A stretch of DNA of 59,110 nucleotides from a virus (taxonomy: Duplodnaviria > Caudoviricetes), in the IMG/VR virus record IMGVR_UViG_3300025626_000029, positions 1 to 59,110 of that record. One strand, given 5' to 3'. Every line of letters begins with the position of its first letter. The stretch's first letter is position 1. This document shows positions 7,958 to 53,330 of the stretch, in pieces. The translations under genes were made by a program, and so were the position numbers. The notes under the pieces are model-generated. The model saw only the letters and a list, made by a program, of their open reading frames with translations, did not search any database and was not told the DNA's origin.

Positions 7958-8230
7958 ATGGCAAAAGCAAAGAAAATGATCAAGCGTAAAGACGGTAGCT
8001 ACAGCAAACGTGGTTTGTGGGATAACATCCGTGCTAACAAGGGTTCTGGCAAGAAGCCTACAAAAGAGATGCTAGAGCAAGAGCGTAAGATTAAAAAGAA
8101 AGCTAAGAAAAAGAAATACTACGCTGGAGGTAAAGTGAAATACCTAGAAGGTGGTCAAGTAAAGCTTGATAAGAACGGCAACGGTGCTCTAGATGCTAAC
8201 GACTTTAAAATGTTGCGTGGTGAAAGCTAA
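7958..8230 (+). CDS. Small basic protein with YxxGG repeats and an EF-hand-like loop
   Basis: Lys-rich; YYAGGKVKYLEGGQVK; DKNGNGALDAND. Confidence 0.75.
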   Translation: MAKAKKMIKRKDGSYSKRGLWDNIRANKGSGKKPTKEMLEQERKIKKKAKKKKYYAGGKVKYLEGGQVKLDKNGNGALDANDFKMLRGES

Positions 8231-8384
8231 AAAGAAAACAGAAAAAGTAATGGTTGACGCACCCTCTGGCTATCACTGGATGGACAAAGGAGGGCGCTAC
8301 TACCTTATGGAGCATAAAGGTAAGTTTGTACCACATAAAGGAGCGTCACTAAAGAAGCCTTTTAAAACTATTGCTTCACACTAA
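8220..8384 (+). CDS. Small basic hypothetical protein
   Basis: GTG start at 8220 gives MKAKKKTEKVMVDAPSGYHWM... Confidence 0.6.
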   Translation: MKAKKKTEKVMVDAPSGYHWMDKGGRYYLMEHKGKFVPHKGASLKKPFKTIASH

Positions 8385-8814
8385 TAGGTTCTTCACCAGC
8401 CATCTTGCGGTAGAATTTAGATACAACCAGTCTACCGTTTTGGCTGAGTGCATACCTTACACGGTAATTATATTTATTCTCTTCTCTAAACAAATGATCT
8501 TCTCTAACAGTAGACGGAGTAAGCTTATCAAAATGCTTATAGATATACCCCTTTTTAAGAAGCGGGTATACAAGCCTACGTCCTATGTTTCGTTTCTCAT
8601 ACTTGTACTCTCCGGCAATCCAGTCCATCGTAAAGAATTCCAAGTCGTAGACGAAGAGCATGAACCGCATCTCTTTATCTGATAGATCATATCTAGAAAG
8701 CATGTCGCTCATAACAATGCTCCAGTTTTTTAGGTAGTTGTCTTTCATCCATTTTTCCTTGAGATAGGAGAAATCTCTGAACATCTTTGTCTTTGCTACT
8801 CTTCCCTTTGGCAT
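8368..8814 (-). CDS. Putative winged-helix DNA-binding protein
   Basis: LSDKEMRFMLFVY...LVYPLLKKGYI...YALSQNG pattern resembles MarR-type wHTH; the only counter-oriented gene in the late module. Confidence 0.55.
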   Translation of the reverse strand: MPKGRVAKTKMFRDFSYLKEKWMKDNYLKNWSIVMSDMLSRYDLSDKEMRFMLFVYDLEFFTMDWIAGEYKYEKRNIGRRLVYPLLKKGYIYKHFDKLTPSTVREDHLFREENKYNYRVRYALSQNGRLVVSKFYRKMAGEEPISVKQ

Positions 8815-17507: not shown

Positions 17508-20500
17508 ATGGCAATAAAGTTTCTCAATAGTTTAAATGCAGACTCTGGTGTTCTGTATGTAGATGCAAATAGCAACAGAGTAGGTATTGGCACAACGAGT
17601 CCTGCTGTAGGATTAGATGTTAGACCCCTTGCAAGATTCTGGCACGGTTCAACAAGCCACTTCACTCAGTTCTCTAACGGTAATGAGATAAATACCTTTA
17701 ACTCATCAGGAGGTAGCACTGTAATGTATTTACAATACAGAAGTGGTAGTTTAAATGTTGGTGCTGGAACTTTAATTGTTCAAAGTGGTAACGGTAACGT
17801 AGGTATAGGTACAACTAGTCCAGCAGCTAAGTTAGAAGTTGTTGCGTCCACATCAGGATCAATAAAATTTACTCAAGGCGCTAACGCTTACCAGCAGCAG
17901 ATAGAAACTACTGGTCATACTATATTTCAAAGACCTGATAATCATATATTTCAGGTTAAAAGGGGTACGACTACCGACATGTATATCCAGTCAAATGGCA
18001 ACGTAGGTATTGGTACTACTAATCCATTAGAGAGGTTACATATAAACGGTGCAATCAAATTAGATCAGAGCGCTAATGTAGTCGGCAATGGTATTGCACA
18101 CCATACAAATGGTTACCTATATGTAACAGGTGGTACTGCAGGAGCTGCAATAGGTAATGATTCTTATAGTAGCGCAGTATATGCATTAGACAACGGCTCT
18201 TTAGAACTGTATGCAGGAAGTTCAAACAGGCTTCATATCACTTCTGGAGGCAACGTTGGTATTGGACTTACAAACCCTTCTCAAAAATTACACGTTGACG
18301 GAAACATAAAAGCAAACGGTAGCGTAAGTGTAACCAATATCGTTACAAATAGAATTGTTAAATTTAACGGAAGTGTTCTTGATGATTCTTTGTTATACGA
18401 TAATGGTACAAGTATTGGTTTAGGAACTACATCGCCAAACCCTTGGGCTCAATTAGAAACTAGTGGTACTGTAGCTGTAGGAGGAATACTATATGTTAAG
18501 TCTAGTCAAAAAATTCAAGGTCTAACAGGATTTCCTGGTAGTGCTGGTAATTTATCAATCAACCCAGATGGAGGTAACGTAGGTATTGGGACAACTAGTC
18601 CATCTTATAAATTAGATGTAAACGGGGAGGGTAGGATTACAGGTATGACTTTTACAGCTTCAGGAGCTACAAGAGCAATATCTACACATTCATCTGCGGG
18701 TCAATTACAATTAAATGGTGGTACTTCTGCAACAACTGGTGCATATATTAATATAGCTGGAGACTCTTACTCTACTGGTGATTATGTTGAGATAATAGCA
18801 GGAAGAACATATTTTACAGGCAACGTAGGTATTGGTACTTCTAGTCCAGAGCAAAAGCTCCACCTTTCAGGAAACTTTCTATTACAGAACAACAAAGAAA
18901 TAAGATTTAAGGACACTGGAGGAACTCAAAGAACAATTACAAGAGTAAATTCTTCAAATGAATTAGAAATTGGTTGGAGTGGTAGTGGTCCTGTTAAGTT
19001 TATGGGTGGAGGTTCCTATACAGAGCGTATGCGTATCCACACTGATGGTAATGTAGGTATTGGTAAAACAAACCCAGTTCGCACTTTAGATATTAATGGG
19101 TCTTTCTTAGCTAGAACAGCTAGTACAAATTTAGAGTATAACAATGGCGTTATATATCACGGAGGAAGTTATTACCAATTTTCAAGTGGTTCAAACTACT
19201 TGCTATACGGGCGCTCTGGAATGGGCTTGGTATTTGGTTCAAATGATTCTGAAGCAGCTAGATTTGATTTATCAGGTAATCTAGGTATTGGGACTACTTC
19301 GCCCACAGCGGCATTACACGTTCAGAAAGCTATTAACGGAGGATTTGCAGGAACCATATACAATACTCAAGCCACAGGCGGGTTTGGATTAAGCGTAAGA
19401 GGGGGTAACTCATCTGCTGAAGACGCATTAAGAGTGCAAAATGTAGGCGGAACGTATTTACTAAATGTTAAAGGCAACGGTAACGTAGGTATAGGAACTA
19501 CTAGTCCTCAAACTAATTTAGATGTATTCTCAGGCACAGGTGGTACATTAAGATTAGGTACATCAGACACTGTTGTATTAGGTGGAGACACTATAGGAAG
19601 AATAGAATTTTTCTCTTCAGATGCTACTAATACAAATAGTGGACTAGGAGCTTTTATTGACCTTGTAGCAGACGGAAGTCAAGATCATTTTAATCCTAAT
19701 GGAGATTTGCGTTTTGGTACATCATATGCTTCAGCATCAGCTGCCACAACGAGGATGACCATAAAGGGTAATGGTAACGTAGGCATTGGAACAACTAGTC
19801 CTTCTGAGAAGTTAGAGGTTCTAGGCGACATCAGATTTGGAGGATCAACTAATGGAGATTGGGCTGTATTAGAATACGGAACAAAGTCAATACAGTTCAC
19901 ACAATCTAACGCAGGATCTGGAGGTCACGAAATGAAATTTAGAACTCCAGGATGGAGTACGGATGCATTTATATACACAAACGGAAGCACAGAAAGATTC
20001 CGTATTACTGGTACTGGTAACGTAGGTATTGGGACTACAAGTCCTTCTGCTAAATTACACGTAGACGGAGATGTCCGTATCACCGGAGCATACTACGACT
20101 CAAATAACTCAGCAGGTACATCAGGTCAAGTTCTTTCTTCTACAGCTACAGGAACAGATTGGGTAAGCTTATCTGAGATTCAAGGTGTAGACGGTAGCGG
20201 TACTACTAATTATATTGCTAAGTGGAGTGATACTGATACAATTGCTAATTCTGTTATTTATGATAATGGGACTGACGTAGGTATTGGAACTACTAGTCCA
20301 AATGTTGAGTTAGCAGTTTATCAAACCAGTACTCCAAGACTACACCTACAAAATTCAACAAGTGGAACTGCTTACAATAAAGGATTTCAATTAGCATTAA
20401 GTGATAATGATGGTTATTTATGGAATTGGCAAAACGGTTCTACAATTTTTGGAACCAATAATACCGAACGTATGCGCATTACTAGCGCAGGTAATGTTGG

Positions 20501-21680
20501 TATTGGTACTACATCACCAAACGGAAAACTTCACGTTTATGGAGGTAGGCTTGTATTAGATAATATAGCAACAGCTCAAACGGCTATACAATTTAACTCA
20601 GCAGGTTCTGAGAAGATAGTGATGTATAGACCAACTAGTACAGAGGATTTCAGGATATATACTCCAGCTGCCGGTGACGCTTTTACCTTATTACAATCGG
20701 GCAACGTAGGTATTGGTACTACTAGCCCACAACAAAAACTTGATGTTAATGGAAATATAGGTCTTAGTGGTAATGGTACCGGAAATAGGTGGATTTTATT
20801 AAATGAAACTAATACATATGCTGGAACTTTAAGAATACAAGCAGGAGGAGGTAGCGCAGGTTATGGTGGTGCTATAAATATGTACGGTCACTCTCACGCT
20901 ACTAATCCCGGAGATGTTGCTGTAGGAATATCTAATGGGTCTGGGGGTTCATTTAGAGTAAATAGCACAGGAATAGATACAGGCACAGATTTATTTATAG
21001 TAAAATCATCAGGCAACGTAGGTATTGGGACTACTAGTCCTTCTTATAAGCTAGATGTTCAAGGCAATGCTGGATTAGCTACTATTAACACTAATGGAGC
21101 GATACAAGCCGGTGGGCAGTTTATTTCTGGTGCTGGTGAATTCGTGTCTAGTAGTTCGGGAACAGATGTGAATTTTAGAGCGGGTTCAACGCACCTTATG
21201 GTTCTAAAAACATCAGGTAACGTTGGTATTGGGACAACATCGCCTTCTGAAAAGCTTGAGGTAGACGGTAATGTAAAAGCTAACAGCTTCATCGGAGGCA
21301 ATGAGGCAGGTATCTACACCTTTAATGATACAGTCAATGCTAGTGCTTCAGAAGACATCTTTAGCATATCTAATCAACACGGTGCGCAGGCATTTAGAGT
21401 CACCTTTGTGTGTAGTACAAGTTCTTATTCTGTAGCTAAAACATTTGAAGTGGTACATTCTCACGGAATTGACCCTGTGTTCTTTAAAGTGGTAGACACA
21501 GGCGCTTTTGGAGGTCACGACTTTGATGTAAGTTTTGCAACAGAAGCAGGTGGTGGAGCGGCAAATAACAACAAAATCATTTGTACCATCACAAACAACT
21601 CCACAACTGTCAACGCAGACATTGCAACAACCGTCTTCTTGGGTGGTTCACCAACAACAATAACAGTAACAGCTTTATAA
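17508..21680 (+). CDS. Long tail fibre with GNVGIGTTSP repeats
   Basis: About 17 G(N)VGIGTxxP units separated by variable modules. Confidence 0.85.
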   Translation: MAIKFLNSLNADSGVLYVDANSNRVGIGTTSPAVGLDVRPLARFWHGSTSHFTQFSNGNEINTFNSSGGSTVMYLQYRSGSLNVGAGTLIVQSGNGNVGIGTTSPAAKLEVVASTSGSIKFTQGANAYQQQIETTGHTIFQRPDNHIFQVKRGTTTDMYIQSNGNVGIGTTNPLERLHINGAIKLDQSANVVGNGIAHHTNGYLYVTGGTAGAAIGNDSYSSAVYALDNGSLELYAGSSNRLHITSGGNVGIGLTNPSQKLHVDGNIKANGSVSVTNIVTNRIVKFNGSVLDDSLLYDNGTSIGLGTTSPNPWAQLETSGTVAVGGILYVKSSQKIQGLTGFPGSAGNLSINPDGGNVGIGTTSPSYKLDVNGEGRITGMTFTASGATRAISTHSSAGQLQLNGGTSATTGAYINIAGDSYSTGDYVEIIAGRTYFTGNVGIGTSSPEQKLHLSGNFLLQNNKEIRFKDTGGTQRTITRVNSSNELEIGWSGSGPVKFMGGGSYTERMRIHTDGNVGIGKTNPVRTLDINGSFLARTASTNLEYNNGVIYHGGSYYQFSSGSNYLLYGRSGMGLVFGSNDSEAARFDLSGNLGIGTTSPTAALHVQKAINGGFAGTIYNTQATGGFGLSVRGGNSSAEDALRVQNVGGTYLLNVKGNGNVGIGTTSPQTNLDVFSGTGGTLRLGTSDTVVLGGDTIGRIEFFSSDATNTNSGLGAFIDLVADGSQDHFNPNGDLRFGTSYASASAATTRMTIKGNGNVGIGTTSPSEKLEVLGDIRFGGSTNGDWAVLEYGTKSIQFTQSNAGSGGHEMKFRTPGWSTDAFIYTNGSTERFRITGTGNVGIGTTSPSAKLHVDGDVRITGAYYDSNNSAGTSGQVLSSTATGTDWVSLSEIQGVDGSGTTNYIAKWSDTDTIANSVIYDNGTDVGIGTTSPNVELAVYQTSTPRLHLQNSTSGTAYNKGFQLALSDNDGYLWNWQNGSTIFGTNNTERMRITSAGNVGIGTTSPNGKLHVYGGRLVLDNIATAQTAIQFNSAGSEKIVMYRPTSTEDFRIYTPAAGDAFTLLQSGNVGIGTTSPQQKLDVNGNIGLSGNGTGNRWILLNETNTYAGTLRIQAGGGSAGYGGAINMYGHSHATNPGDVAVGISNGSGGSFRVNSTGIDTGTDLFIVKSSGNVGIGTTSPSYKLDVQGNAGLATINTNGAIQAGGQFISGAGEFVSSSSGTDVNFRAGSTHLMVLKTSGNVGIGTTSPSEKLEVDGNVKANSFIGGNEAGIYTFNDTVNASASEDIFSISNQHGAQAFRVTFVCSTSSYSVAKTFEVVHSHGIDPVFFKVVDTGAFGGHDFDVSFATEAGGGAANNNKIICTITNNSTTVNADIATTVFLGGSPTTITVTAL

Positions 21681-21688
21681 AATAAGAT

Positions 21689-24600
21689 ATGGCAATCACG
21701 TTTAATCACAACGATCAGGTATACGTAAAGGACGGTAAACTAGGTATTGGAACTGCTAGTCCAGCAGCTAAGTTAGAGGTGCTTAGCGGTGGCGGTATTC
21801 ATATAACCGATGACTCATTAGGGAGGACTTTAATAATAAAGCCAAGCTTATCGGGAGCTGTACACGAGTTTACTAGCGACAACACTGCAGCTGGGTATTC
21901 TTTTTCTAATAACTCATCCGAATTTATGCGTATTGCCGCAGACGGCAACGTTGGTATTGGAACTACTAGTCCTTCTTACAAACTGCACGTAGATGGAGAT
22001 ATTGGTATAAACGCTAACGATGCATTTAAAGCTAGGTATGATACTAATGAAAACTACCACGGTTCATTTAGATGGTCAGGCTACAATTAGGTAATAACGG
22101 AGCTAATAAGATTATAGCTGGTAGAACAGGCACAGCCGGGTATTTTCAGTTCTACGTAAACAATACAAACGATGCTTCAGATTATAATGTAACCCCAGAC
22201 GGTACTAAAATCTTAACATTAGCAGCTGATGGTACATCAACATTTACTGCAGGCAACGTAGGTATTGGAACTACTAGTCCAGCAGCTAAGTTGCATATAA
22301 AGATAAATGATTCTGGTGCTACTCCTATATCTCAACAACACTTAGTATTAGAACATAACTCAGCAACTGGATTAGGTATATTAACAACATCATCCACTTC
22401 TGGATATATTTTCTTTGGAGATGAAAATGATGCTCAACGTGGGTATATTTCATATAATCATCCTACTGATGATATGACTTTTAAAGTAGCTGGGTCTGAA
22501 AGGATGCGTATCATTAATAACGGCAACGTAGGTATTGGGACTACTAGTCCAGCCCATCCCTTGCACGTAAACGGTGCGGCTAGACTACAGGGGGCATTAG
22601 AAGTAAACTATGGGGTAAGCACTGCTGATGCAGCAATTAACGTAGGTGTATCTAGGACAGATAGCGGCTATGCTTACTTAGATTTAATTGGAGACACAAC
22701 ATACACCGATTATGGGTTAAGAGTAATCAGAGGAAACTCTGGAGCAAACGCCTCTTCTCAAATAAATCATAGAGGAACAGGAGATTTTGAATTTCGTGCG
22801 TTAGAGGCAGCGAATATTACATTTGATACTAACGCTACTGAAAGAATGCGTATTACTTCAGCAGGTAACGTAGGTATTGGAACTGCTAGTCCGACTTCAC
22901 AGTTTACCATCTCTGACCCAACTGCACCAACACTAGAGTTTAACCGTCAGGGTTCAACTGCTAATGGGTGGATAAAAACAACAGATAGTTCTCAAAACGT
23001 AGAAGCTGCTATTCAAATGTACGGAAACGAAGTGCGTTTGTTTACAAATGGAGAAAGTAACCAGAGAATGATGATAGACGCTTCTGGCAACGTTGGTATC
23101 GGGACGACAGCGCCTGTAAGTTTAGTACACGCAAGCAATGGAAATTATAGGGTTTCTAATGAGACTGCTGCAACTTTTAGGGGTTATGTTTTTGGAGCAA
23201 CTGCGGGCGACTCTACGGAATATAGTTACTTAAAATGGGAGCCTCAAGGAGGAGAATTGAGACTATGGAATAATCCGGCAGCATTTGGTGGATTTTTTAG
23301 TATTTATACAAACGCTGTAGAACGCTTACGCATCACCAGCGCAGGCAACATAGGTATTGGTACTACTGCACCAAATCATAAACTTGATGTTTCGGGTGTT
23401 ATTATGGGTAGAAGTGGTATTTCTACTTACGGATACCATAGAACAATTCCGGTATATTCTTATAGCAACGGAATTCTTATAGCTACTAATATCGCTACTT
23501 CTGACAATAATATGATTCAGTTAGAAGTTAGCGGAAATACATATTCAAACGGTACTCCTTTAAAAGCTCAATATCAGTGTTATAACTACACCAGTAGTGG
23601 AACATTTATTAGAAACTACGGCATTTCAACTCATCCAGAATTAGAGGTAGATGTTTTTCATTACAATGGATACGTTTACTTTTGGATGGAGCAGGTAAGC
23701 GATTTTAATACATTAACGTTTGAATTGTATTCTGGACTGTACAGTGATAGAAGAATAACTCAAACAAGCAACTCTGCTAAACCAACAACCGGAGTAACTA
23801 ATAGTGTAACTATTGTTCCTAAGTCTTGGTGGCACAGTGGAAATGATGGTACTGGTAGCGGATTAGATGCTGACTTACTAGATGGATTAGAAGCAACAGC
23901 TTTTGCAACTGCAGCACAAGGAACTAAAGCAGATACTGCACACGGATGGGGTGACCATTCTACTGAAGGATATGCACCTTTAGCTTCACCTGCTTTAACC
24001 GGTACACCAACAGCACCAACAGCAGGATCTACTACAAACAACACACAGCTTGCTACAACAGCTTTTGTACAAACTGCGGTATCAAACCTTGTTGACTCTG
24101 CTCCAGGTACGTTAGACACGCTTAATGAGCTTGCAGCTGCATTAGGTGACGATGCTAACTTTAGTACTACAATGACTACAGCATTGGGTAATAGATTACG
24201 TATTGATACTAATGCTCAAGGTCTAAACGCAACTCAACAAGCTAATGGTCGTACTAACCTAGGGCTGGGTACGGCTGCTACTTCGGCATCAACAGACTTT
24301 GTTTCAGCAACTGCTGATGATACAATGGCTGGAAAGTTAACTATTCAGAAAGTTTCTTCAAGTGTAAGTCAAGGTTCGTTTAGTCATTCAAATGCTCATT
24401 TAGATTTATACAATAGTTGGGAATCTAATACAGACCAAAAGGGTTCTATAATTACGTTTACCGACAATTATTACGATGGAAGTAATTACATTAAAACCAC
24501 AAGAGCAGCAATAAAAGGAGGAACTGACACTGTAGGTAATACTGCTGATGGTTATTTAGAGTTTTACACAGACTCTGCTGGAGCTAATTCTCCAAGTCTT

Positions 24601-27564
24601 GCATTAAGGTTAGATAGAAATCAAAACGCTACTTTCTCTGGAACTATAACAGCCACTGGAGGAAACTCTACTAACTGGAACACAGCTTACGGCTGGGGCA
24701 ATCACGGATCAGCTGGATACATAACATCGCAACGTGCTATAAGCAGTACTCCTACAGATGGTGCTACCACAACAGCTATAAGTTCTGATTGGGCGTTTGA
24801 TAATGTTAAGACTGCTGTGCCTGCTAATGCTGTGTTTACAGATACAGTGAATACTTTTGATGGTGCATATACTTCTTTGACTGGGCTGCCAACATTAGGA
24901 ACTGCAGCTGCAACTGCTTCTACTGACTTTGCAACTGCTGCTCAAGGAACAAAGGCTGACAATGCCTTACCAATTTCAGCTGGTTCAACAAAACCTTTGA
25001 GTGACAATCTTCATTTTAGCGCAGCTGCTTCATATATATTTGGCGGTGACGATGAGATATTAGCAGGACAAGATGGTAGTGCATATTACTACGCAACAGG
25101 TAATGGTCAAAATTTAACAAAGCCTGTTTTTATCGGTGACAATAACGCATATATCAGATTTAATTCTGGTAATTCAGAAAAGATGCGTATTACAAATGCG
25201 GGCAACGTTGGTATTGGCACTACTGGTCCTGCTAAAAGGCTATCTGTAGAAACAAGCGATACTGCTACATATGACCCTACAATCAACGCTTCTGAGATTA
25301 GTGTATCTAGAAAGAACAGTAGCAATACAGCAGGTCAGGTAGCTGCAATCAGTCTTAATGCAACCGGTTGGTCAGGACAAACTACGGGTGTAGTAGTCCT
25401 TAATGCTATAGCACGTCAAGGAAACTTTAGTAATGCAGACTTTGCCATTCAGAACAGAGTTGGTGGGAGTTTTGTAGAAACATTTAGAATTACTACATAC
25501 GGTAATGTAGGGATTGGTACTGATACTCCAGACGACAATATAAATACTGGGACTTATTTTAAACCAGATAGTGGTGGTAGATTCTTAACAGTAAAGGACA
25601 GTTCAGGTTCTTTTATAATGTTAGAAAGCAGTACAACCACAGATGATGACCAAATAGGTGGGATATACTTTAACAACACAGTCGGTCAAGCAGATGCTCA
25701 CGTACACGTAGCGGGGATTGATGCTATTCTACACAAACACGGTACAAATGATGCACTTAGTGGTGGAGATTTAAGATTCTTTACTAAGCCCTCTGGAAGC
25801 GGGATAAACGGTCCTAGGATGGTTATTTTGCAGAATGGCAACGTAGGTATTGGGACGACTAATCCTGGTAAGAAATTGGATGTAAACGGAGAAGCAAGAG
25901 TAAATAGTATTTTAACTTTAAACAGAGCAAGTGCAGCTAGTTTAAAATTTTCCAGAGGTAGTGACTTTTATTTAGGCATAGATGATTCAGGGAATTTAAA
26001 CTTTTTAAACAACGCAGCTTCTAGTTTAGGTGTTTGGCAAAATACAGGTAACGTAGGAATTGGAACTACTAGTCCTTCTACAAAACTACACATAGATAGT
26101 GTTGATGGTAGTTCAAACAGAACCTCTCCGTTTAATGTATTGACAATAGAAGCAGAAAGTGGTACACTACCTTATACTGGTTTCGGTGGTGGTATTGTAT
26201 TTAAGAACAGAACCTACACCTACGGAATGCTGACCTCAGCTAGAATACGTAGTGTTATAGATGCTGACTCTGCATCAAATAGAGGAGCTGGACTAACTTT
26301 TGAAACTACTGATGTAAATCAAAACTACATTAGCGCTATTTCTCTGAAGTACAACGGGGCTATACAGTTCCCACAGTACGGAGCAGGCTTCCTAGTAACA
26401 GACGCAAATGGTAATATATCTTCAGATACTAATACCTACCTAACATCCGTAGCATTCTCAGACTTAACAACCACACCAACTACAATAGCTGGTTATGGAA
26501 TTACTGATGCACTACAGATAGGAACTACAGCAACAACAGCTTTAGCCGGTGATACTTCTATACCTGCAAGCGGTACTGATTTTGATCCTGTAGGTACAGA
26601 TAATAGTACCGATGTAACTTTAGATACCAGCTCTTACGATTACCTTTCTATAAGTGGTCAAGAGATTACGTTAGGGCAGATTGATTACGATGCTGATATA
26701 ACTAACCTACCTACACTTGGTACAGCTGCTGCGGCAGATACAGGTGACTTTGCAAGTGCGACTCAAGGGGCTACTGCTGATTCAGCGTTACAACCAGCAG
26801 ACATAATTACCTTTGCTGGTGATGGTGAAGGTCTTGTGCCAGACGGAACTTCAGCTGATGCTTCTAAATTCCTAAACGGAGATGCTGGATGGACAGTACC
26901 TACAAATACTGTAACAAGTGTAGGTGTATCTGGAGATTTATCTACTGGAAATATAACTCTTGCAGGAAGCGGTGATGTTACCGTAACTAAAAGCGGTGGT
27001 ACTATTACAATTGATTGCAGCGATACAGATACGCAGTATACAGCAGGAGCTGGTTTAGATTTAACTGGAACTTCATTCTCTATAGAGGCTGACTTGTCTT
27101 CAGATGTGCATACGATAGGTCGTGATGCAGATGACAAGTATGTAGTCAACACTACAAACCACGCTTGGTACTTGGATGGTGTGTTAGATATGCGCCTTGC
27201 AAACAACGGTACTCTTGATGTAGACGGTGATGTTGTTGCTTTCTCTACTGTTACAAACTCTGACCGCAGATTAAAGACGGACATAGAGACTATTGAGAAC
27301 GCTTCTGAGAAGGTTTCTAAGTTGCGTGGTGTATCTTACACTTGGGATCACGGTAAGCGCAAAGGACAGCGTGATATAGGTTTGATTGCTCAAGAGGTTG
27401 AAGAGGTTGTACCAGAGGTAGTAAGCGAAGGTCAGCTACTAGACGGAACAACAGCTAAACGAGTAGACTACGCTAAACTAGTTGGTTTACTTATTGAGTC
27501 CAACAAAGAGTTACAAGCTCAGGTTAATGAACTAAAAGATAGATTAGATGGCATTACAAAGTAG
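21689..27564 (+). CDS. Tail fibre with GNVGIGT repeats and C-terminal peptidase S74 intramolecular chaperone; split by a -1 frameshift at ~22080 into ORFs 21689-22090 and 22072-27564
   Basis: About 11 repeats over both ORFs; SDRRLKTDI...IGLIAQEVEEVVPEVV S74 motif; reads ...FRWSG/LQLGNNG across the junction if one base is restored. Confidence 0.8.
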
Positions 27565-29221: not shown

Positions 29222-29254
29222 GAGAGGGTTACAGAAATGTAGCCCTCTTTTTTT
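29222..29254 (+). terminator. Rho-independent terminator, followed by -7 element TATCTTTG (29256-29263)
   Basis: gagggttaca-gaaa-tgtagccctc + T tract. Confidence 0.85.
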
Positions 29255-29267
29255 ATATCTTTGCTAA

Positions 29268-29561
29268 ATGAAAGCGAAGAAGAAAGACTCACGTTTGAAA
29301 AGTGCAGGGGTATCTGGTTACAATAAGCCTAAGCGTACACCTAGCCACCCTAAAAAGTCACACGTTGTAGTGGCTAAAGTCGGAGATAAGGTTAAGACTA
29401 TACGTTTTGGAGAGCAAGGCGCAAGCACTGCTGGTAAGCCTAAGTCTGGTGAGTCAGATCGTATGAAGAAGAAACGTGCATCATTTAAAGCACGTCATCG
29501 CAAGAATATAGCTAAAGGTAAAATGTCCGCAGCATACTGGGCTAATAAGGTTAAATGGTAA
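29268..29561 (+). CDS. Small basic phage protein
   Basis: KSHVVVAK...IRFGEQG...RASFKARH...SAAYWANKVKW. Confidence 0.75.
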   Translation: MKAKKKDSRLKSAGVSGYNKPKRTPSHPKKSHVVVAKVGDKVKTIRFGEQGASTAGKPKSGESDRMKKKRASFKARHRKNIAKGKMSAAYWANKVKW

Positions 29562-29719
29562 TGAACGAAACCGATATCAGACTACTAATACTCAACGCTA
29601 CTACATTTACTGTAAGTATGTCACAAATAGAAACAACACTAAAGCTGTTGTTATTAATAATATCAATAGGATACACAGCACAGCGTTGGTACTTTCTACG
29701 CAAAAATATAGACGAATGA
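29561..29719 (+). CDS. Holin-like small membrane protein (52 aa)
   Basis: Hand-translated MNETDIRLLILNATTFTVSMSQIETTLKLLLLIISIGYTAQRWYFLRKNIDE*; coupled at both ends (TAATG, ATGA). Confidence 0.6.
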   Translation: MNETDIRLLILNATTFTVSMSQIETTLKLLLLIISIGYTAQRWYFLRKNIDE

Positions 29720-29907
29720 TACACAAATGGACTTCAGTTAGAGCAGTATACTTATTAATGTCTGCTGTTTTGTTTTTAGGATTAACCCTTCAGTCTTGGT
29801 GGGTTGTTGTCTTTGTAATCGCTATGCTTAACGTAGGGGTGTGGACTAAGTTTTGTCCAAGCAAATGGTTCTTTGAAAAAATAGGATTCCGCAACACAGA
29901 ATTGTAA
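29716..29907 (+). CDS. DUF2892/YgaP-like two-TM membrane protein
   Basis: ATG at 29716; two hydrophobic helices then GVWTKFCP..WFFEKIG. Confidence 0.65.
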   Translation: MIHKWTSVRAVYLLMSAVLFLGLTLQSWWVVVFVIAMLNVGVWTKFCPSKWFFEKIGFRNTEL

Positions 29908-30806
29908 TGAATGCTCTTGACGGCATCTCAAAAAGGTCAATTGTATGCTTGATTTGCTCCATACTAATTATGCTAACCTTTTTTGTATTTAAGACTCTCG
30001 TAGTATTTAAATACATACATCACTCCACATTTACACATTACTTTGAATGGCTATCTGTAATAGCCTTTATGCCACCTTTCTTTATGGTGGTACAAGAGTT
30101 CTTGCAAAACAAGGCTAAAATTAAAGACGACCTAAGTAAAAAAAATATCTACTTAGAACACGCTGCTAAAATTATACGTCACGATATGCATAGCGGTATC
30201 AATACCTACTTACCAAGAGGTATCAAATCACTGAACCGTAGGCTTACAGATAAGAACATTAAAGACTTGCGTATTAGCGCACCTTTAAAACTTATTAAAG
30301 ACGGCTTACACCACGCTCAGAAGGTGTATGCTGGCGTGTATGAGTTTACCAACTTAGTAAAAGAGAATGCACAGCTAAACAAATCTCCGCACAACATAAT
30401 AGAAATACTAACAGACTACTTAAAGCTCACTGCTTACAAAAATCAAGTAGTATTATCAGATAACTTACCAGACGTATTAGATGTTAATGAGGCATTGTTT
30501 TGTACTGCGTTAGATAACTTTATTAGGAATGGATTAAAATACAACGACAGTGGAACTAAGTGGGTAAAAATATACCACGAAGGCAGTTACCATACAGGTT
30601 CTTATCTTGTTGTAGAAGACAACGGCAGAGGCTTAACAGCTGAAGAGTTTATAATCCTATCGAAGCCTTACACCAGAAAAGAAAACCAGAAAGAAGCTGG
30701 GACTGGACTTGGTTTAAACATTTCTATAGAGATTCTAAAAGAACACGGATACAGCGTGTCTGCTAAAAAAACAGGTAACGGTACAAAAATATATATAAAG
30801 TTATGA
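29907..30806 (+). CDS. Sensor histidine kinase (2 TM + HisKA + HATPase_c)
   Basis: H-box IIRHDMHSGI, N-box LDNFIRNGLKYN, G1 VEDNGRG, G2 GTGLGL. Confidence 0.92.
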   Translation: MNALDGISKRSIVCLICSILIMLTFFVFKTLVVFKYIHHSTFTHYFEWLSVIAFMPPFFMVVQEFLQNKAKIKDDLSKKNIYLEHAAKIIRHDMHSGINTYLPRGIKSLNRRLTDKNIKDLRISAPLKLIKDGLHHAQKVYAGVYEFTNLVKENAQLNKSPHNIIEILTDYLKLTAYKNQVVLSDNLPDVLDVNEALFCTALDNFIRNGLKYNDSGTKWVKIYHEGSYHTGSYLVVEDNGRGLTAEEFIILSKPYTRKENQKEAGTGLGLNISIEILKEHGYSVSAKKTGNGTKIYIKL

Positions 30807-31240
30807 TTGACACATTAATGCTCATAGACGATGAAAACCTCTTCCACCTTGTGTTTGAAGATGCTTGTTCTATGTTGGACATTGCTCTATCTATAGAGTC
30901 ATTAGACAGCTCTGATGAGGCTGACAGAAAATTTAAAGCTTGGTTTCCAGACGACCCAGACCACGAGCGTCCACAATGTGTATTCGTAGACTTAAACATC
31001 ATTGGCTCTTCTTTTGATGGTATCGAGATGATACGAAAGATAAATACAGAATACGGAAACGGATGTGTTATAGGAATTATATCGAGTAGCTCCGACCAAG
31101 AAGAGATTGATAAAGCTAAAGCTGTAGGCGCTCAGTTCTGGATTATTAAGTCTGATGACATAGAACCACGACTTGAGGAATTCCACAAAGACTACGAAGG
31201 TTACGTAAGTAAAACAAATCCGTTTAAGGTTTATAGATGA
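30803..31240 (+). CDS. Single-domain (CheY-like) response regulator receiver
   Basis: LMLIDDE, VFVDLN (phospho-acceptor Asp), IISSS, FWIIK; no output domain. Confidence 0.92.
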   Translation: MIDTLMLIDDENLFHLVFEDACSMLDIALSIESLDSSDEADRKFKAWFPDDPDHERPQCVFVDLNIIGSSFDGIEMIRKINTEYGNGCVIGIISSSSDQEEIDKAKAVGAQFWIIKSDDIEPRLEEFHKDYEGYVSKTNPFKVYR

Positions 31241-31782
31241 TAAGCTCTAAGGACACTATAAAGCAAGCCATCCAAAAGGCAGCAAAGAAAAAAGTTTACA
31301 TAGAAGGAAACTTTGTAAAGCTGTTGGGAGATACTTCTGATGAGGAGGTAAAGGCTTATATAGAGGAGTGTAAAAGAAGAGATTTAGCACAGAGAAGAAA
31401 ACGCTTAGATATAACCAAACAGGTTCAGAAACAAAATAAAGAACTGGAGGAAGCAGCAGTAATAAAAGGAGCACTTGTCATAGAGCTACAAAACGAAAAG
31501 AATGAAGCCGAGAGGTTGCGTGATGAAGCTGTAGAAGATCTAGATATGATGCAGAAGCGCACTCAGTTTGAACTAATAGGAACTATTGTTAAAGTCGCTC
31601 TGTATGTAATTGTAGGTGTTGGAGTGCTAACTACCGTTATGTATGCTTGGGCTATGACCTCTGGTACAGATACACAAATTATAGGAAGTACTTGGTCCAA
31701 TATGTTTGGTATACTGCTTACAAACGCATTTAGTATTGTTGGTACGATAATGGGTGTCAAGTACGCAACAGACAAGGACTAA
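31237..31782 (+). CDS. Coiled-coil protein with two C-terminal TM helices
   Basis: Charged heptad region then IVKVALYVIVGVGVLTTVMYAW and MFGILLTNAFSIVGTIMG; ATGA-coupled to the receiver gene. Confidence 0.8.
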   Translation: MISSKDTIKQAIQKAAKKKVYIEGNFVKLLGDTSDEEVKAYIEECKRRDLAQRRKRLDITKQVQKQNKELEEAAVIKGALVIELQNEKNEAERLRDEAVEDLDMMQKRTQFELIGTIVKVALYVIVGVGVLTTVMYAWAMTSGTDTQIIGSTWSNMFGILLTNAFSIVGTIMGVKYATDKD

Positions 31783-31828
31783 ATTACATATTGATAAAAG
31801 TGTTAATTTTGTAACATAATTAAATTTA

Positions 31829-36827: not shown

Positions 36828-39800
36828 ATGGCTATAGATAAGCTAACCCCAAGGTATCTAAATAAAGATAGCGATGAACGTCTCGTAAAGAACGTAGAGA
36901 TGACAGACGCATTAAACTTGCGTATATCTACTGAAGACGATGGCGATGGTATTGTTATTAAAAACGCTTATGGTAATGTTGCAAAAAGCTTTAACATAGC
37001 TCCAGCTTCTGGAACTAGCAAAGTTGTAGGTTCTGTTTCTCATGAGCAGTTAGGCGTTATTATATTCTTTATATATAACAGCAATAACAGCCACTCAATA
37101 TACCAGTACAAGTCTTCTACAGGATCCTCTACAAGGGTTTATCAGGATTCCGTGTTAGGATTTACAGCTGATTCTTTTGTAAAGGGTGATATCATAGAGT
37201 CTAACACAGGCGATATACTTTTATTCTTTAATGATAGTGAATCAGATCCAAAGAAGATTAATGTAACCAAGGCTATAGCTGGTAACTACCCTTCAAAATT
37301 TACTACAGGTACTGATGAAGAGAAGTTACTTTTCTTAACTGTTGCTAAACAGCCGCCTTTAGACCCTCCTACATATAATATTGTAAACAACTCAGCGCTA
37401 AAAGAAAATAGAATCTTTAACAAGGTGTATCAGTTTGCTTACAAGTATGTATATGACGATGGAGAGCATTCAGCATTATCTCCATACAGCTCGTTAACCT
37501 CTTCTATAACACAGTTAAGAGATGGCTTTATAACAGAGTCTGCTAAAAATTTTTACAACCAGATAAATATTTTTGTTAAAAATAGTGTAGCTGATGTAGA
37601 TAAAATAGTTGTATACGCAAGGGAAGGTAACGCTGGTCCATTTTTTGAAATAGAAGAAAAGACAAATCTTCATAATAGTAATGCTGTAACTATAAATTTC
37701 ACAGATGATAAAAGAGGTTCACTAGTTTCGTCTACAGAACAGAACAAACTTTTTGATAATGTTCCTTTAAAAGCTGACAGCCAGGAAATAGTTGAAGGTA
37801 GATTAATGTATGCTGGTTATACAGAGGGGTATGAGAATATTGACACAACCAGTGAACTAATTAGCAACTATAAACACGTTGATAATTCTATAGCTGTTTC
37901 CTTATCTCAATCAACAAATTACGCTGTTTTATTAGACTATAGTGGACTACCTTCTACTTTTACAGAGGATAGAGTTTTATACTTAAACATAGTTCTTAAC
38001 GCTGATGAAATTAATTTATCTGATAGTGGATTTGCCGATCTATCTGTTAGCACAGATATATTTTTTTCTGATGAAGATGGAAAAAACGTAGATACAAAAT
38101 CAATATCTAAAATAAAAAATGGTATTCAATCTGGTATATCGCCTCTTATTATTAGAGAACAAATAAATATTTCTTCTGGAGATAGTAAGCAAGATTTAAA
38201 AGATGCTATTTATGCTTTAATGCATAACAATCTTTTTAAAGTCAAGCTTTATCCTTTAGGTGACGGAGACTCTATTCGTGTAATGAACGCAAGTGGATCT
38301 TCATTATTTACGGTTGAAAGCGGAGAGGTAAAAGGCTCTTTAACATTTAAATGTACTAGCACCGCTAATGCGGGCACTCTTATTTTTAATCCAGAGTATC
38401 TAGATGTCTATATAAATAGCTTTTACGAAGATGCTAAAAAAAGACTTATTATAAGGTCTGGAAGAATAGTCCTAGACAATGCAGATCCTTCTACTGATTT
38501 TGTTATGACATTAACAAACAGAACGTCTTATTTCACAGCTCCTTTGTTGAAAAACTTAGATGTAGGTAAAACATTCAAATCTGGATCTTCTCACAAGCTA
38601 GGTATTGTTTATTATGATAATAGAAATAGAAGTGGCGGTGTTCAAGAATTAGGAAGAACTTATGTAAACTCCTTAGCTGATAGAGCTGATGAGGACAACT
38701 TGAAGGGATCTGCAAGTGTGGTAATGAGAGTCTCCCATGATCCACCTACTTGGGCTAATAGTTGGGCTCCTGTATACACTGGTAAAGGTTTATCTGTTAG
38801 TAAATTTATATACGGAATAGGTGGTGGTTTTATTCCGTTTAATGAAAACTCCGGAGTATTTAGCACTCCTAATAAAAGAATATATATATCATTAAACACT
38901 CTTTTTGAAAAAGATAATAGCTATGTAAAAGCTTTCGGATCCGATAAAAGTTATTCTTATAAACAGGGAGATAAAATGAGGATAATATCATATGGGTCTT
39001 CAAGTTTAGATTTAAATATATTTAAAGTTGTAGGTCATGAGATATTAGTAGATGATTACAATACGAACCCAATACTTGATAGTTCTACTCCAGACACAGT
39101 AAATTATACAACCGGATCATTTTTAATTATAGAGGAGAATCAAGAAGCTACTGGATTTACCTATAAAAATTTAGAAAACAACGATAGCAAATGGTTTGAC
39201 GATTGCATTATAGAAGTGTATAATGATAATCAAGAGAATAAAGAAAGTATATACTACGAAATCGGAACTAAGTACGATGTTGTATCTGGAGCTCATGAAG
39301 ACGACAGGGTTACAACAACTCCTAGTTTTATAATTACTTCACAAAGCGGTAGTGATGTTGAAGGTACTACTACAGACAGAATATTTAAGGGAGATATTAT
39401 AACTTCTGGTAGCTTTAGTATTACTGTAGGTAATGTATACAAAGAAGGTAATACTTATTATTTCTTTGCTGAAGAGACAACAGATTCTACGTTTACACTA
39501 GATGTAGCGTATGCTGGAACAGTTACAAACACTGACAAGGTCATTGAGATAATACAGGGTGATGCATATATGCGACCTAGAGTTATGTTTGCAGCTCCTG
39601 ATCAAATATCAAAAGGAAGGTTTAGAAAAATGCCTGGATATAACGGAATTGTTAGGTTTATAGATGATTACTCTGTAAGCGATTTCTTTAATTCTGAAAG
39701 CAGTTCTATTGGTAGACCTATTGCTAGAATCGATAATGCTAAACAGCAAAAAAGAAAAGCATCTATAACCTATTCTGATTTTTATTCAGCAGATGGTTCT

Positions 39801-41054
39801 GAGTTAAATCTATCATCTTTTAATTTATCACTAGCGAACTATAAAGATTTAGCCATAGAACATGGTTCAATAAAAAGTCTTGTTAGTTACAACCAGTCGT
39901 TATTCTTTATACAAGAGCGTAGAGCTGGTGTACTAGCTGTTGGTAAGAATGTAATACAGACGGGTAGTGGTGATGATTTAGTTACATTAAGTACAAATGT
40001 TTTAGGAAATGAAAGATACTTTACTGGTGAATACGGGTGTGGGAATAATCCAGAGTCCGTAGCTCATTATAACGGTAAAATATTTTTTGCTGATGTAAAT
40101 AGCGGAGACTTAGTAGCTGTATCTTCTAATGGATTAACATCTATTAGTGATAAGACAATGTCATCTTTTATAAACAAGAAGTTCAACGCTGTCTCAAATG
40201 AGACTAGCCATAAGGTTATTGGTGGCATTGACAAAGACAACAAAGAGTATATTGTTACTACACCAGCAATAAGTGGTAGTCAAGATTCATTTACGTTAGG
40301 GTATTCTATAAACAATAACGTATTCACTACATTCTATAGTTTTGAACCAGAGTCTATTGTTAGCCTAAGAGGTTTCTTGCATACTTTTAAAGACGGTTAC
40401 TTATACGAGCACAACGAAACAGCTAGTAGAAACACGTTTTACGGAGCTTCAGCTGCTCAATCTTTAGTTGAAGTTATTTCTAAAAGCTCTCCTTCTGCCG
40501 TAAAGACTTATGAGTCATTATCCTTGGAGGGTAACACAGCGTGGGACACAACTATTTCTACAACTAATCAATCAGCTGTTATAGATGATACGTCTTATGG
40601 TGAGAAAGAAGGTTTTTACTACGCCTATGTACACGGAGCTACTACTAGCAGAAACGGAACAGATAATATCACTACAACAAAAAGCACAGATGAGTTTTTT
40701 GGATTAGGAATTGTAGATAGTGTATCGACTAATACCATTACGTTTAAGAATGATATATCCTCTATGAGTTTTCCTCTGGGTGTTTCTTCTTTCTTATATA
40801 AGGTAAATAACACGCAGCTTGTAGCATTGTCTTTAACAGCTTCTAGTATTTCTGGATCAAATCAACTAACTTGTAACGCAAATGTATCTGGATTAGCGCA
40901 AGATGATGTCGTTGTATTAGTTGCAGATTCATCTATTGAGGGTGACCAGATAAGAGATTACTTTGCTAAAATCAAACTAACAAAAACAGATACAAATCCT
41001 ATAGAATTATATGCTGTAAACGCAGTGGTAACAGATTCTAAGGCACATAATTAA
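36828..41054 (+). CDS. Tail nozzle/stabilisation protein (P22 gp10-like position)
   Basis: 1408 aa beta-rich; LNKDSDERLV...DALNLRI N-terminus, YQFAYKYVY, GIVYYD, YGCGNNPES. Confidence 0.75.
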   Translation: MAIDKLTPRYLNKDSDERLVKNVEMTDALNLRISTEDDGDGIVIKNAYGNVAKSFNIAPASGTSKVVGSVSHEQLGVIIFFIYNSNNSHSIYQYKSSTGSSTRVYQDSVLGFTADSFVKGDIIESNTGDILLFFNDSESDPKKINVTKAIAGNYPSKFTTGTDEEKLLFLTVAKQPPLDPPTYNIVNNSALKENRIFNKVYQFAYKYVYDDGEHSALSPYSSLTSSITQLRDGFITESAKNFYNQINIFVKNSVADVDKIVVYAREGNAGPFFEIEEKTNLHNSNAVTINFTDDKRGSLVSSTEQNKLFDNVPLKADSQEIVEGRLMYAGYTEGYENIDTTSELISNYKHVDNSIAVSLSQSTNYAVLLDYSGLPSTFTEDRVLYLNIVLNADEINLSDSGFADLSVSTDIFFSDEDGKNVDTKSISKIKNGIQSGISPLIIREQINISSGDSKQDLKDAIYALMHNNLFKVKLYPLGDGDSIRVMNASGSSLFTVESGEVKGSLTFKCTSTANAGTLIFNPEYLDVYINSFYEDAKKRLIIRSGRIVLDNADPSTDFVMTLTNRTSYFTAPLLKNLDVGKTFKSGSSHKLGIVYYDNRNRSGGVQELGRTYVNSLADRADEDNLKGSASVVMRVSHDPPTWANSWAPVYTGKGLSVSKFIYGIGGGFIPFNENSGVFSTPNKRIYISLNTLFEKDNSYVKAFGSDKSYSYKQGDKMRIISYGSSSLDLNIFKVVGHEILVDDYNTNPILDSSTPDTVNYTTGSFLIIEENQEATGFTYKNLENNDSKWFDDCIIEVYNDNQENKESIYYEIGTKYDVVSGAHEDDRVTTTPSFIITSQSGSDVEGTTTDRIFKGDIITSGSFSITVGNVYKEGNTYYFFAEETTDSTFTLDVAYAGTVTNTDKVIEIIQGDAYMRPRVMFAAPDQISKGRFRKMPGYNGIVRFIDDYSVSDFFNSESSSIGRPIARIDNAKQQKRKASITYSDFYSADGSELNLSSFNLSLANYKDLAIEHGSIKSLVSYNQSLFFIQERRAGVLAVGKNVIQTGSGDDLVTLSTNVLGNERYFTGEYGCGNNPESVAHYNGKIFFADVNSGDLVAVSSNGLTSISDKTMSSFINKKFNAVSNETSHKVIGGIDKDNKEYIVTTPAISGSQDSFTLGYSINNNVFTTFYSFEPESIVSLRGFLHTFKDGYLYEHNETASRNTFYGASAAQSLVEVISKSSPSAVKTYESLSLEGNTAWDTTISTTNQSAVIDDTSYGEKEGFYYAYVHGATTSRNGTDNITTTKSTDEFFGLGIVDSVSTNTITFKNDISSMSFPLGVSSFLYKVNNTQLVALSLTASSISGSNQLTCNANVSGLAQDDVVVLVADSSIEGDQIRDYFAKIKLTKTDTNPIELYAVNAVVTDSKAHN

Positions 41055-52210: not shown

Positions 52211-52435
52211 ATGAAAAAGTTCGTAGAGATTTTTAATAATGACAACAGCTACAATGAGAAGACGGTAATAGGTTTTTTATCGTTTGCTGTTATGGTATTG
52301 GTAATGCTTGCCGATGTAATCACTGGAGCGTTTGGAGCACACCTACCTATCAATGAGTTTACTTATAACAGTTTTGTTATTGTTACTTTAGGTAGCTTTG
52401 GTATCGCAGGACTAGAGAAGTTTGCTAAAAAATGA
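52211..52435 (+). CDS. Holin-like two-TM protein
   Basis: Two hydrophobic helices, basic C-terminus, directly upstream of endolysin. Confidence 0.65.
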   Translation: MKKFVEIFNNDNSYNEKTVIGFLSFAVMVLVMLADVITGAFGAHLPINEFTYNSFVIVTLGSFGIAGLEKFAKK

Positions 52436-52917
52436 TAAGAGCTATGGAGTTAGAGGTACTACGATTCAGCAGCCAAGATGATTCAACAAATGGAATATTA
52501 TTTGATGTTACAGGAGGACAAAGAAAGTTCTTGTGCTATACCCTTGAAGACGAATATCGTGAAGATAAAGTCATGGGTGAAACTAGAATTCCCGCAGGCA
52601 CATATAGAATAACACTTAGAACTGTTGGTGGATTCCACGGCAGATACAAAAAAAAGTATGGCGAGATGCACAAAGGAGCGTTATGGGTACGTGACGTTCC
52701 TAACTTTGAGTATATCCTTATTCATACTGGTAATACTGACGAACATACTGCTGGGTGTCTTCTTTTGGGTGATTCTCAACAAGCGAACTTTGGCTCTAGT
52801 AATGGTATGGTGGGGTCAAGTGTTAATGCGTATAAAAGAGTCTATCCTCCGATTGCTAAGGCACTTGAAGAAGGGGAATCGGTAAGTATTACTTATGTAG
52901 ATTTTGACACTGTATGA
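52432..52917 (+). CDS. DUF5675-family putative endolysin
   Basis: CYTLED...RIPAGTY...ILIHTGNT...TAGCLLLG. Confidence 0.75.
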   Translation: MIRAMELEVLRFSSQDDSTNGILFDVTGGQRKFLCYTLEDEYREDKVMGETRIPAGTYRITLRTVGGFHGRYKKKYGEMHKGALWVRDVPNFEYILIHTGNTDEHTAGCLLLGDSQQANFGSSNGMVGSSVNAYKRVYPPIAKALEEGESVSITYVDFDTV

Positions 52918-53330
52918 AATGGCTGGTAAAATTAACTCTATTGCTGTTATTAACGAGTTGCAGCGCTCAATGGCACTTAAAGAAAGCGGTGCAGAAGGAT
53001 CCAGCAATTCTGGAAAAAGACACGCTGGTTGTAACGACCACGGTTGTCAGCCCACCTGTGGCTATCACGGATACTGTGACTTTGAAGCAACACGATACTA
53101 TTACAATAGTGAAGGATCGTCTGAAAGTACAGCTAATAAAGGTGAACGACACGATTACTATAAACGCAGAATGCGCCTCGGATACGATAGTTCAGACTAT
53201 TAATGTTCCTTACGATAGGGTAGTATATATAGAAAAAGAATCTATATGGGACAAGATAAAGAACCTAGCTATCTATATGGGGCTGGCGTTCTTATTGTTT
53301 AAGTTAATAATGAAACAATTTGACAAGTAA
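52914..53330 (+). CDS. Unimolecular spanin-like lipoprotein
   Basis: Lipobox LLLTSC, beta-rich middle, C-terminal TM LAIYMGLAFLLFKLIM; follows endolysin. Confidence 0.65.
   Translation: MKWLVKLTLLLLLTSCSAQWHLKKAVQKDPAILEKDTLVVTTTVVSPPVAITDTVTLKQHDTITIVKDRLKVQLIKVNDTITINAECASDTIVQTINVPYDRVVYIEKESIWDKIKNLAIYMGLAFLLFKLIMKQFDK

Follow-up and report, generated by a model that had tools for sequence, protein, structure and literature searches.

An uncultured marine tailed phage, the 59,110-bp IMG/VR virus record IMGVR_UViG_3300025626_000029, carries contiguous genes for a histidine kinase, a stand-alone receiver and a coiled-coil membrane protein among its virion genes. This raises the question as to whether the phage carries a stray piece of host signalling or owns a two-component system that serves the virus itself and, if the latter, what the system acts on. 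To address this, we compared the whole record (the window; estimated to be 98% complete, G+C 38.7%) with viral and cellular sequence collections. We put at roughly 0.55 the probability that these genes, in the window as in other uncultured aquatic phages, encode a phage-owned phosphorelay that has the hairpin of the coiled-coil protein as its membrane output and that tunes lysis; as an assignment of function, this is read from gene content and comparison. The four genes on which the argument turns are the following:

29907..30806, + strand: histidine kinase, 299 amino acids (aa), with two membrane segments, a short loop, a putative DHp domain with His91, and HATPase_c
30803..31240, + strand: stand-alone receiver, 145 aa, with invariant D9, D10, D63, S94-96 and K116; the most conserved protein of the set
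31237..31782, + strand: CC, a 181-aa virus-only protein with a coiled coil and two transmembrane segments (TM1 and TM2); proposed output of the relay
29716..29907, + strand: M63, a two-helix membrane protein of 63 aa in which a C-P-S-K-W motif is invariant; it usually accompanies the kinase, on the upstream side

Which genes belong together? A scan of IMG/VR returned 55 loci with a kinase at 57-90% identity. The receiver is present at 53 of these, CC at 51 and M63 at 47; the four loci without CC (two of them also without the receiver) stop at a contig edge, as do three of the eight loci without M63. The gene for a basic protein that precedes the cassette in the window, and five other window neighbour genes, occur at none of the 55. 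Since kinase, receiver and CC, with or without M63, are shared across loci in at least 19 differing flank contexts (assigned by eye from gene maps), we take these three proteins to be a unit that moves as a block, with M63 along in most cases. A preliminary description of the window, made from its letters alone, had drawn a cassette of six genes; M63, kinase, receiver and CC are conserved, but the basic protein (0/55 loci) and a 52-aa peptide (2/55) are not. The synteny of kinase, receiver and CC that it proposed to look for in phage genomes is what the IMG/VR loci display.

Outside IMG/VR, tblastn of the kinase, receiver and CC found no relative in 50,697 GenBank phage records, a set that may omit records very near the window. 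The receiver sequence alone had no match in 185,579 species genomes (one genome each); an alignment of receivers, run against the same genomes, yielded four loci that have kinase, receiver and CC, spread over three metagenome-assembled genomes (MAGs) labelled as three phyla. The flanks of the two MAG contigs that were scanned are phage-like (phrog_22605, 4e-130; topoisomerase II phrog_543, 1e-191), and the cassette-bearing MAG contigs are probably phage contigs binned into MAGs. L057, an 89-kb contig in a Bdellovibrionota-labelled MAG, is likely such a contig, like L058, a 13.5-kb contig in a Verrucomicrobia-labelled MAG. In the L058 cassette, the receiver and a CC of 226 aa are preceded by two kinase genes (546 and 407 aa) and a gene of 245 aa, and the large subunit of a T4-type topoisomerase II (phrog_543) lies downstream. 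One more, distant locus, which is in an Anaerolineae MAG and lacks CC (29% identity), was set aside.

Could the cassette nevertheless be a recently acquired host fragment or a chimera of assembly? Its G+C is slightly lower than that of its neighbours (34.5-38.5% vs. 39-43%), as such an origin would predict. On the other hand, near-identical DNA of the cassette stretch is present in marine metagenomes of several studies, and both cassette ends are spanned by DNA contigs from two further, independent marine runs (X3 records 13 and 18; X9 records 21 and 25), those of X3 with no letter differing from the window, so that the placement of the cassette is not an assembly artefact. In addition, no flanking repeats of note were found around the cassette, and the relatives, which occupy 55 viral loci at 57-90% identity, were nowhere found on a plainly cellular contig, as might have been expected for the recent host fragment of which the preliminary description had warned. 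We therefore consider this origin practically negligible, and the comparison supports a complete two-component system that belongs to the phages.

Is the relay likely to be functional? The kinase matches Pfam PF02518 HATPase_c (3.3e-14, 53.7 bits vs. a cut-off of 26.4), and the best solved-structure match of its core is HK853 (4e-9). An alignment of 38 distinct kinases shows no variation at His91 or in the N, G1 and G2 boxes. The description of the kinase as having all catalytic boxes is thus right with regard to the H, N, G1 and G2 residues, but the conserved helix upstream of the ATPase domain that carries His91 has no HisKA-family Pfam match at E<=1. Judged from the alignment, the kinase holds every residue needed for autophosphorylation. 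With regard to its membrane part, there is one strong hydrophobic stretch (residues 6-38) and a second segment (residues 48-66, mean ~1.56 on the Kyte-Doolittle scale as summed by hand) that carries an invariant FMPPFF; the loop between them has ~10-15 residues and there is no extracytoplasmic domain. Two membrane segments and a very short loop make up the intramembrane-sensing architecture that had been suggested. The His-rich loop that was singled out at the same time is kept in part of the family only, the remainder having a Cys-containing loop, and is not a family-wide feature. In about one third of the kinases a cytoplasmic PAS domain lies between the membrane anchor and the catalytic core; in a tree built from kinase core plus receiver (37 rows), kinases with and without PAS are intermingled.

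The receiver exceeds the cut-off of Pfam Response_reg PF00072 by a narrow margin (30.9 vs. 30.2 bits, E 3.2e-7) and is very divergent from solved receivers, with a best natural PDB match of 0.019. The receiver residues listed above are invariant across 36 distinct sequences, and by this measure the protein has every residue needed to accept phosphate. The alignments of both proteins show their catalytic residues to be intact and under purifying selection. As described earlier, this is a bare receiver without a DNA-binding or any other output domain, so that its output must be protein-protein. Three of the five longer relatives found are kinase-receiver fusions, which supports a cognate pair and implies that the receiver is able to work while tethered to the membrane.

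What, then, might the receiver act on? In the predicted structure of CC (mean predicted local distance difference test score (pLDDT) 79), a small helical N-terminal domain is followed by a helix, residues 36-142, that runs into TM1; TM2 is polar and nearly invariant. CC has no family match in Pfam, PHROGs or NCBIfam, and a fold search of the model against the PDB gave nothing at E<=0.001, only generic long helices. A CC profile found 254 representatives at E<=1e-3 among 1.84 billion sequences, and the ESM Atlas clusters of CC are 100% viral. Among the relatives are Pfam-confirmed domain swaps. In P0286, P0301 and P0297 the coiled coil and hairpin of CC are fused to one or two PAS domains and in P0275 to a GAF domain, while in P0366, P0379, P0387 and P0392 the N-terminal domain and coil of CC are fused to a HisKA-HATPase kinase core; a scan of viral contigs found no locus for the P0366-type fusion. 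Two further candidates, P0317 (CC N-part with a FecCD permease) and P0288 (CC C-part with a glycosyltransferase fragment), are probably chimeric assemblies or gene calls and were excluded.

With P0301 as the scan query, at least 80 viral loci with the PAS-CC form were found. Among the matches listed, none has a receiver or M63, 30 have a recognised lysin or holin, 62 have small membrane proteins of clusters c9 or c4 nearby, and 15 have no lysin, holin, c9 or c4. The fusion often lies between a holin-like gene and an endolysin gene. At L074, for example, the order is a 76-aa membrane protein, PAS-CC and a GH19 endolysin, with overlapping stops and starts, and at L129 it is PAS-PAS-CC, a 79-aa membrane protein, a GH19 endolysin and a Phage_holin_4_1 holin. 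Conversely, the N-terminal domain of CC accompanies the receiver at every locus with CC that was found, and never occurs with the PAS-fused form. The fusions and the positions in lysis operons suggest that the CC hairpin behaves as an output module, one that would be driven either by a fused sensor or, via the N-terminal domain of CC itself, by the kinase-receiver pair. This comparison also supports the earlier choice of the coiled-coil protein as the best candidate for the output of the relay. A complex prediction for the receiver with CC residues 1-115, using both alignments, reached at best 0.09 against a mark of 0.32 and counts neither way.

The genes that flank the cassette loci include a Phage_holin_4_1 holin, a PG_binding_1+Amidase_2 endolysin, a GH19-type endolysin (phrog_181, 1e-64), a phrog_33083-like and an NlpC-like lysin, a weak Rz-like spanin, a Peptidase_M23 protein and DUF5675 (L,D-peptidase-like). 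Using a strict set of recognised lysins and holins, 33 of 56 loci have one within 6 kb and 27 of 56 within three genes. With one locus per context, 12/19 have a recognised lysin or holin in the flanks, and it is the immediate neighbour in 7/19 vs. 2.8 expected (P ~0.007) under shuffling of the lysis genes, which was confined to the 12-kb neighbourhoods and did not extend over whole genomes. DUF5675 keeps a His...His-Thr-Ala-Gly-Cys motif, which we take to resemble that of L,D-transpeptidase-fold enzymes. Its top fold matches, Pgp2, Csd6 and DpaA, are L,D-peptidases, and a 2026 preprint (10.64898/2026.04.11.717860) treats DUF5675 as a C82-like lysin candidate. The family is abundant in metagenomes, with 6,925 clusters at E<=1e-5, all unnamed. 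The link to lysis in the preliminary description is supported by comparison for the family, in which CC, or PAS-CC, and M63 adjoin endolysin and holin genes, but it does not run via the 52-aa "holin-like" peptide, and in the window itself the cassette is 21 kb away from the putative lysin.

Taken together, the relay could work as follows. The kinase would read the state of the membrane or its energy, perhaps with M63, and in about a third of the relatives the cytoplasmic PAS domain would join in sensing; candidate signals are thus membrane or energy state via the anchor and M63, and redox or a small molecule via PAS or GAF. The kinase would then phosphorylate the receiver, the phosphorylated receiver would act on the N-terminal domain of CC, and the long CC helix would relay the signal to the polar membrane hairpin, which may delay or advance holin triggering in an antiholin-like or holin-like manner. 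The wider proposal, that many uncultured aquatic phages time lysis by more than a plain holin clock and that CC represents a new family of signal-gated membrane hairpins which, driven by fused PAS or GAF domains or by a kinase-receiver relay, sets holin triggering, is attractive but tentative, and the odds are somewhat against it. If true, the virus would read energy, redox or membrane state (once perhaps light, via a rhodopsin) and choose its burst time, and this would be the first known phosphorelay that acts post-translationally on the lysis machinery.

Several observations weigh against a role in lysis, and some of them would also suit a different function. The vicinity of lysis cassettes and the ends of late operons are known places of accumulation for accessory genes, and adjacency alone is no proof; the contexts were drawn by eye and the shuffle was a local one, as noted above. 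Five of the 19 contexts (the window, L005, L049, L023 and L029) have no lysin or holin within 6 kb, their neighbours including ribonucleotide reductase, SPFH, Hsp20-GroES-GroEL and ClpP genes, and in two more (L003 and L036) the lysins are only putative (DUF5675 or Peptidase_M23). Confidence in the DUF5675 model itself is low (pLDDT 62.6), and the fold matches obtained with it are weak (E ~0.03). No protein of the set is above threshold for a known holin, antiholin or spanin family, and RNA-library contigs (X17, X19) cover the flanking genes only, with none on the cassette. Finally, mean column identity is higher for the receiver than for CC (73% vs. 53%), which would also fit a conserved host protein as the target of the receiver.

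These points raise the possibility that the cassette is a moron for host takeover or exclusion, which senses infection-related membrane stress and for which the vicinity of lysis genes is just a permissive insertion site. It could block superinfection, or its receiver could be a sink or decoy for host kinases, or its kinase could act on host regulators. The conservation of the receiver, the contexts free of lysis genes and the location of the window cassette in the virion module, away from the putative lysin, would all be accommodated, and many exclusion proteins are small, located in the membrane and encoded close to lysis genes. However, the relay has a conserved membrane output of its own, which also exists in one-protein form, joined to PAS or GAF and translationally coupled to an endolysin; the association with lysins holds for no fewer than four unrelated families of them; and the kinase-receiver fusions argue for a closed, cognate pair. 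We consider such a moron unlikely, if the most serious of the alternatives to a relay that tunes lysis.

A further alternative is that CC either forms an ion path under regulation or regulates such a path, and that the relay keeps the proton-motive force within bounds, with any effect on lysis being indirect. Energy, redox and small molecules are what PAS and GAF domains typically sense, the TM2 helix of CC is polar and hardly varies, a bacteriorhodopsin-like gene lies inside the L049 cassette, and an SPFH protein adjoins that of L023. But the rhodopsin is present at one locus only, and CC matches no channel or transporter family. Moreover, holin triggering depends on membrane potential, so that this device overlaps with the relay that tunes lysis; as a separate explanation we rate it slightly lower than the moron.

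What do the remaining small proteins contribute? Two of them precede M63 in the window:

29268..29561, + strand: basic protein, 97 aa, 30 K+R, phrog_7595 (2e-42); outside the conserved cassette
29561..29719, + strand: 52-aa peptide (54 aa from an in-frame ATG at 29555); its hydrophobic core is short and its tail charged

The peptide had been called holin-like, a label that finds no support: it is poorly hydrophobic, with no 19-residue window at a Kyte-Doolittle value >=1.6, matches no family in Pfam, PHROGs or NCBIfam, and has relatives at L002 and L004 only. More generally, the peptide, M63 and CC of the window match no holin family in these three collections. A small open reading frame (ORF) directly upstream of membrane proteins and a kinase brings to mind peptide communication of the agr or arbitrium type, in which the peptide would be the signal precursor and the kinase its receptor. 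This is very improbable, given that just two of the 55 loci have the peptide, that the kinase is nearly without an external loop to receive it, that part of the family senses via a cytoplasmic PAS domain, and that no processing or export gene is present.

M63, by contrast with the peptide, is a regular companion of the kinase. Its start is the ATG at 29716, a TTG at 29686 having been rejected. C47 and P48 are invariant in the family, of which 14/23 members match PF11127 YgaP-like_TM (the former DUF2892) at E<=1, with a best value of 1.9e-4, and 12/23 match DUF4395; the window protein matches DUF4395 alone (0.028, below the cut-off). Of the original label, DUF2892-like with a CP motif, the motif is confirmed; the DUF2892-like part depends on weak matches, and by these profiles M63 appears to be a distant relative of YgaP-like_TM and DUF4395. 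Three of 23 members touch Phage_holin_2_2 (best 0.0025), and the Atlas clusters of M63 are viral. As for the basic protein, its relatives in phrog_7595 belong to Roseobacter, Celeribacter, Lentibacter and Puniceispirillum phages and a cyanophage. Contrary to the first assignment, it is a gene of the virion module and not a cassette member, and it merely shares a promoter with the cassette in the window phage. At the DNA level, the gene is shared (66-82% over 80-290 nt) with Rhodobacteraceae and Puniceispirillum phages and a cyanophage, which otherwise look unrelated to the Flavobacteriia-type phage of the window.

How does the proposed relay compare with known systems? In T4 lysis inhibition, the holin T is controlled by RI and RIII, which are antiholins (PMC11413866, PMC8385771). 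The likeness lies in phage-encoded sensory control of the time of holin-mediated lysis (proposed here from genes alone), by proteins encoded with lysis genes and with a signal read at the membrane or envelope; T4 differs in that control is by direct protein binding without phosphotransfer and in that RI acts in the periplasm. The T4 proteins have no sequence or domain similarity to the cassette proteins, with no Pfam, PHROG or NCBIfam match between them. In staphylococci, the sensor LytS crosses the membrane several times, and LytR binds DNA and regulates transcription. There, as reported for LytSR-LrgAB/CidAB (PMC4830213), holin- and antiholin-like membrane proteins are under the control of a two-component system tied to the membrane's electrical state, and the proposed relay would resemble it in this. 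However, the system considered here is viral, has a bare receiver and an unrelated effector family, and the likeness is functional only; no 5TM-Lyt or LytTR domain was found in a Pfam scan of the cassette proteins. Beyond generic kinase and receiver domains, the cassette shares no homologous parts with either the T4 or the LytSR system.

The kinases of LiaFSR and BceRS-AB are intramembrane-sensing, with two helices and a minimal loop, have a small membrane protein encoded directly upstream, and pair with DNA-binding regulators in Firmicutes. Here, by contrast, the regulator consists of a receiver alone, and the small partner is M63, which is YgaP-TM-like. A stand-alone CheY/Spo0F-like receiver domain is also found in HK853-RR468, KinA-Spo0F and CheA-CheY, but the phage receiver is divergent, no Hpt or second receiver is seen, and the proposed target is a membrane hairpin. 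Some vibriophages reportedly carry quorum-sensing receptors, sensors that time host killing; these are said to be one-component transcription factors in a lysis-lysogeny switch, whereas the present system would be a phosphorelay that ends in a membrane effector, and its phages appear to be lytic. A literature search, in which most subscription journals were not covered, returned no phage two-component system in a lysis cassette and no sensor-fused lysis membrane protein.

Lysis timing sets burst size and phage fitness and shapes marine carbon release, and to our knowledge little is known, beyond T4-type lysis inhibition, about how phages adjust lysis to conditions. If the proposed mechanism is true, a widespread phage-owned sensor relay and its one-protein equivalents would be wired to a new membrane effector of lysis cassettes. 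It would also mean that a complete two-component system in a phage need not be a set of stray host genes but can be a viral invention kept to serve the virus. For future work, His91, Asp63 and the CC hairpin are defined targets for mutation, the sensor domains have identifiable ligands, and CC offers the holin field a new family.

Why, then, is the window cassette not next to lysis genes? The presumed lysis cluster of the window phage consists of three contiguous genes:

52211..53330, + strand: presumed lysis cluster, comprising
52211-52432, + strand: membrane protein of 74 aa (cluster c4) that has a single long hydrophobic stretch
52432-52917, + strand: 161-aa DUF5675 protein, putative endolysin
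52914-53330, + strand: 138-aa tail-anchored protein

In the tree, the window kinase and receiver are sister to those of L002 (support 98/95), inside a nine-row clade (100/99). In L002, the cassette also contains a homologue of the 52-aa peptide; on its two sides are homologues of the first (80% identical) and third (56%) genes of this cluster, and it adjoins DUF5675, 3' of a giant virion gene. In the window, the cassette is instead upstream of the cluster and follows the gene of the basic protein. Just past that gene, contigs of relatives, from both RNA and DNA, part from the window sequence (loose ends 29491-29542), which fits an insertion there. We therefore think that this arrangement is best read as a move of the cassette, with the 52-aa peptide as a passenger, from the lysis cluster into the virion module and behind a late promoter. 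The position in the virion module that was reported earlier is true for the window but appears to be peculiar to this phage, the L002 cassette being in a putative lysis cluster.

With regard to the layout of the locus, six + strand ORFs at 29268-31782 adjoin with 1- or 4-base overlaps; their coordinates and the five TAATG/ATGA junctions are as previously described (in order: TAATG, ATGA, TAATG, ATGA, ATGA). The cassette sits between tail-like or unknown genes and capsid or virion genes and, in line with the earlier observation, no integrase or transposase family is matched among the neighbouring genes scanned. Many of the RNA-library contigs are diverged relatives, unlike the window after ~29542. 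Three signals delimit the unit:

29222-29249, + strand: terminator-like hairpin, 12-bp stem and T run, which ends the upstream 85-aa gene
29256..29263, + strand: promoter-like octamer TATCTTTG, 12 nt ahead of the first ATG and 3' of the terminator-like hairpin
31804..31811, + strand: next promoter-like octamer TAATTTTG, 25 nt before a 384-aa gene; downstream edge of the unit

The octamer TATCTTTG fits the Bacteroidota -7 consensus, TAnnTTTG. It has six copies in the window (3221, 12486, 17482, 28459, 28899 and 29256), all on the + strand and each ahead of a gene start, a number not above chance (4.0 expected); five of the six are <=40 nt upstream of a gene start, and an A/T-rich stretch precedes the octamer. 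A scan for Sigma-70-type promoters gave 11 sites vs. 11.4 in shuffles, i.e. no excess. The octamer is probably a late promoter element of the window phage and hints at a Bacteroidota host. The capsid protein of the window is ~31% identical to structural proteins of Flavobacterium and Cellulophaga podophages, and carriers of the cassette probably infect marine Flavobacteriia.

Some of the neighbouring genes at other loci deserve mention in their own right. At L029 (2046-4423, + strand), an Hsp20 gene (Pfam 6.9e-12) lies directly 3' of the cassette and is followed by GroES-like and GroEL-like genes (by eye), and at L023 (2623-3573, + strand) the gene immediately 5' of the cassette encodes an SPFH/Band 7 membrane protein (3.1e-15). 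The bacteriorhodopsin-like protein of L049, a 297-kb viral contig, has 193 aa and is encoded between the receiver and CC (8195-8776, + strand). It matches Pfam Bac_rhodopsin (3.7e-14), its best solved relatives are proteorhodopsins and a viral rhodopsin (~1e-8), and two motifs can be read by eye: RYLDW in helix C, and DLTAK, whose lysine is likely the one for retinal. Its gene adjoins one for a 169-aa membrane protein with several helices and, at its end, a coiled coil, and ClpP and a weak GAF protein are encoded nearby. Finally, the structural region of the window contains four very large + strand ORFs, at 17508-21680 (1390 aa), 22072-27564 (1830 aa), 36828-41054 (1408 aa) and 43403-52195 (2930 aa), and the 2930-aa protein has 33% identity over 286 residues with the product of a giant ORF of L002.

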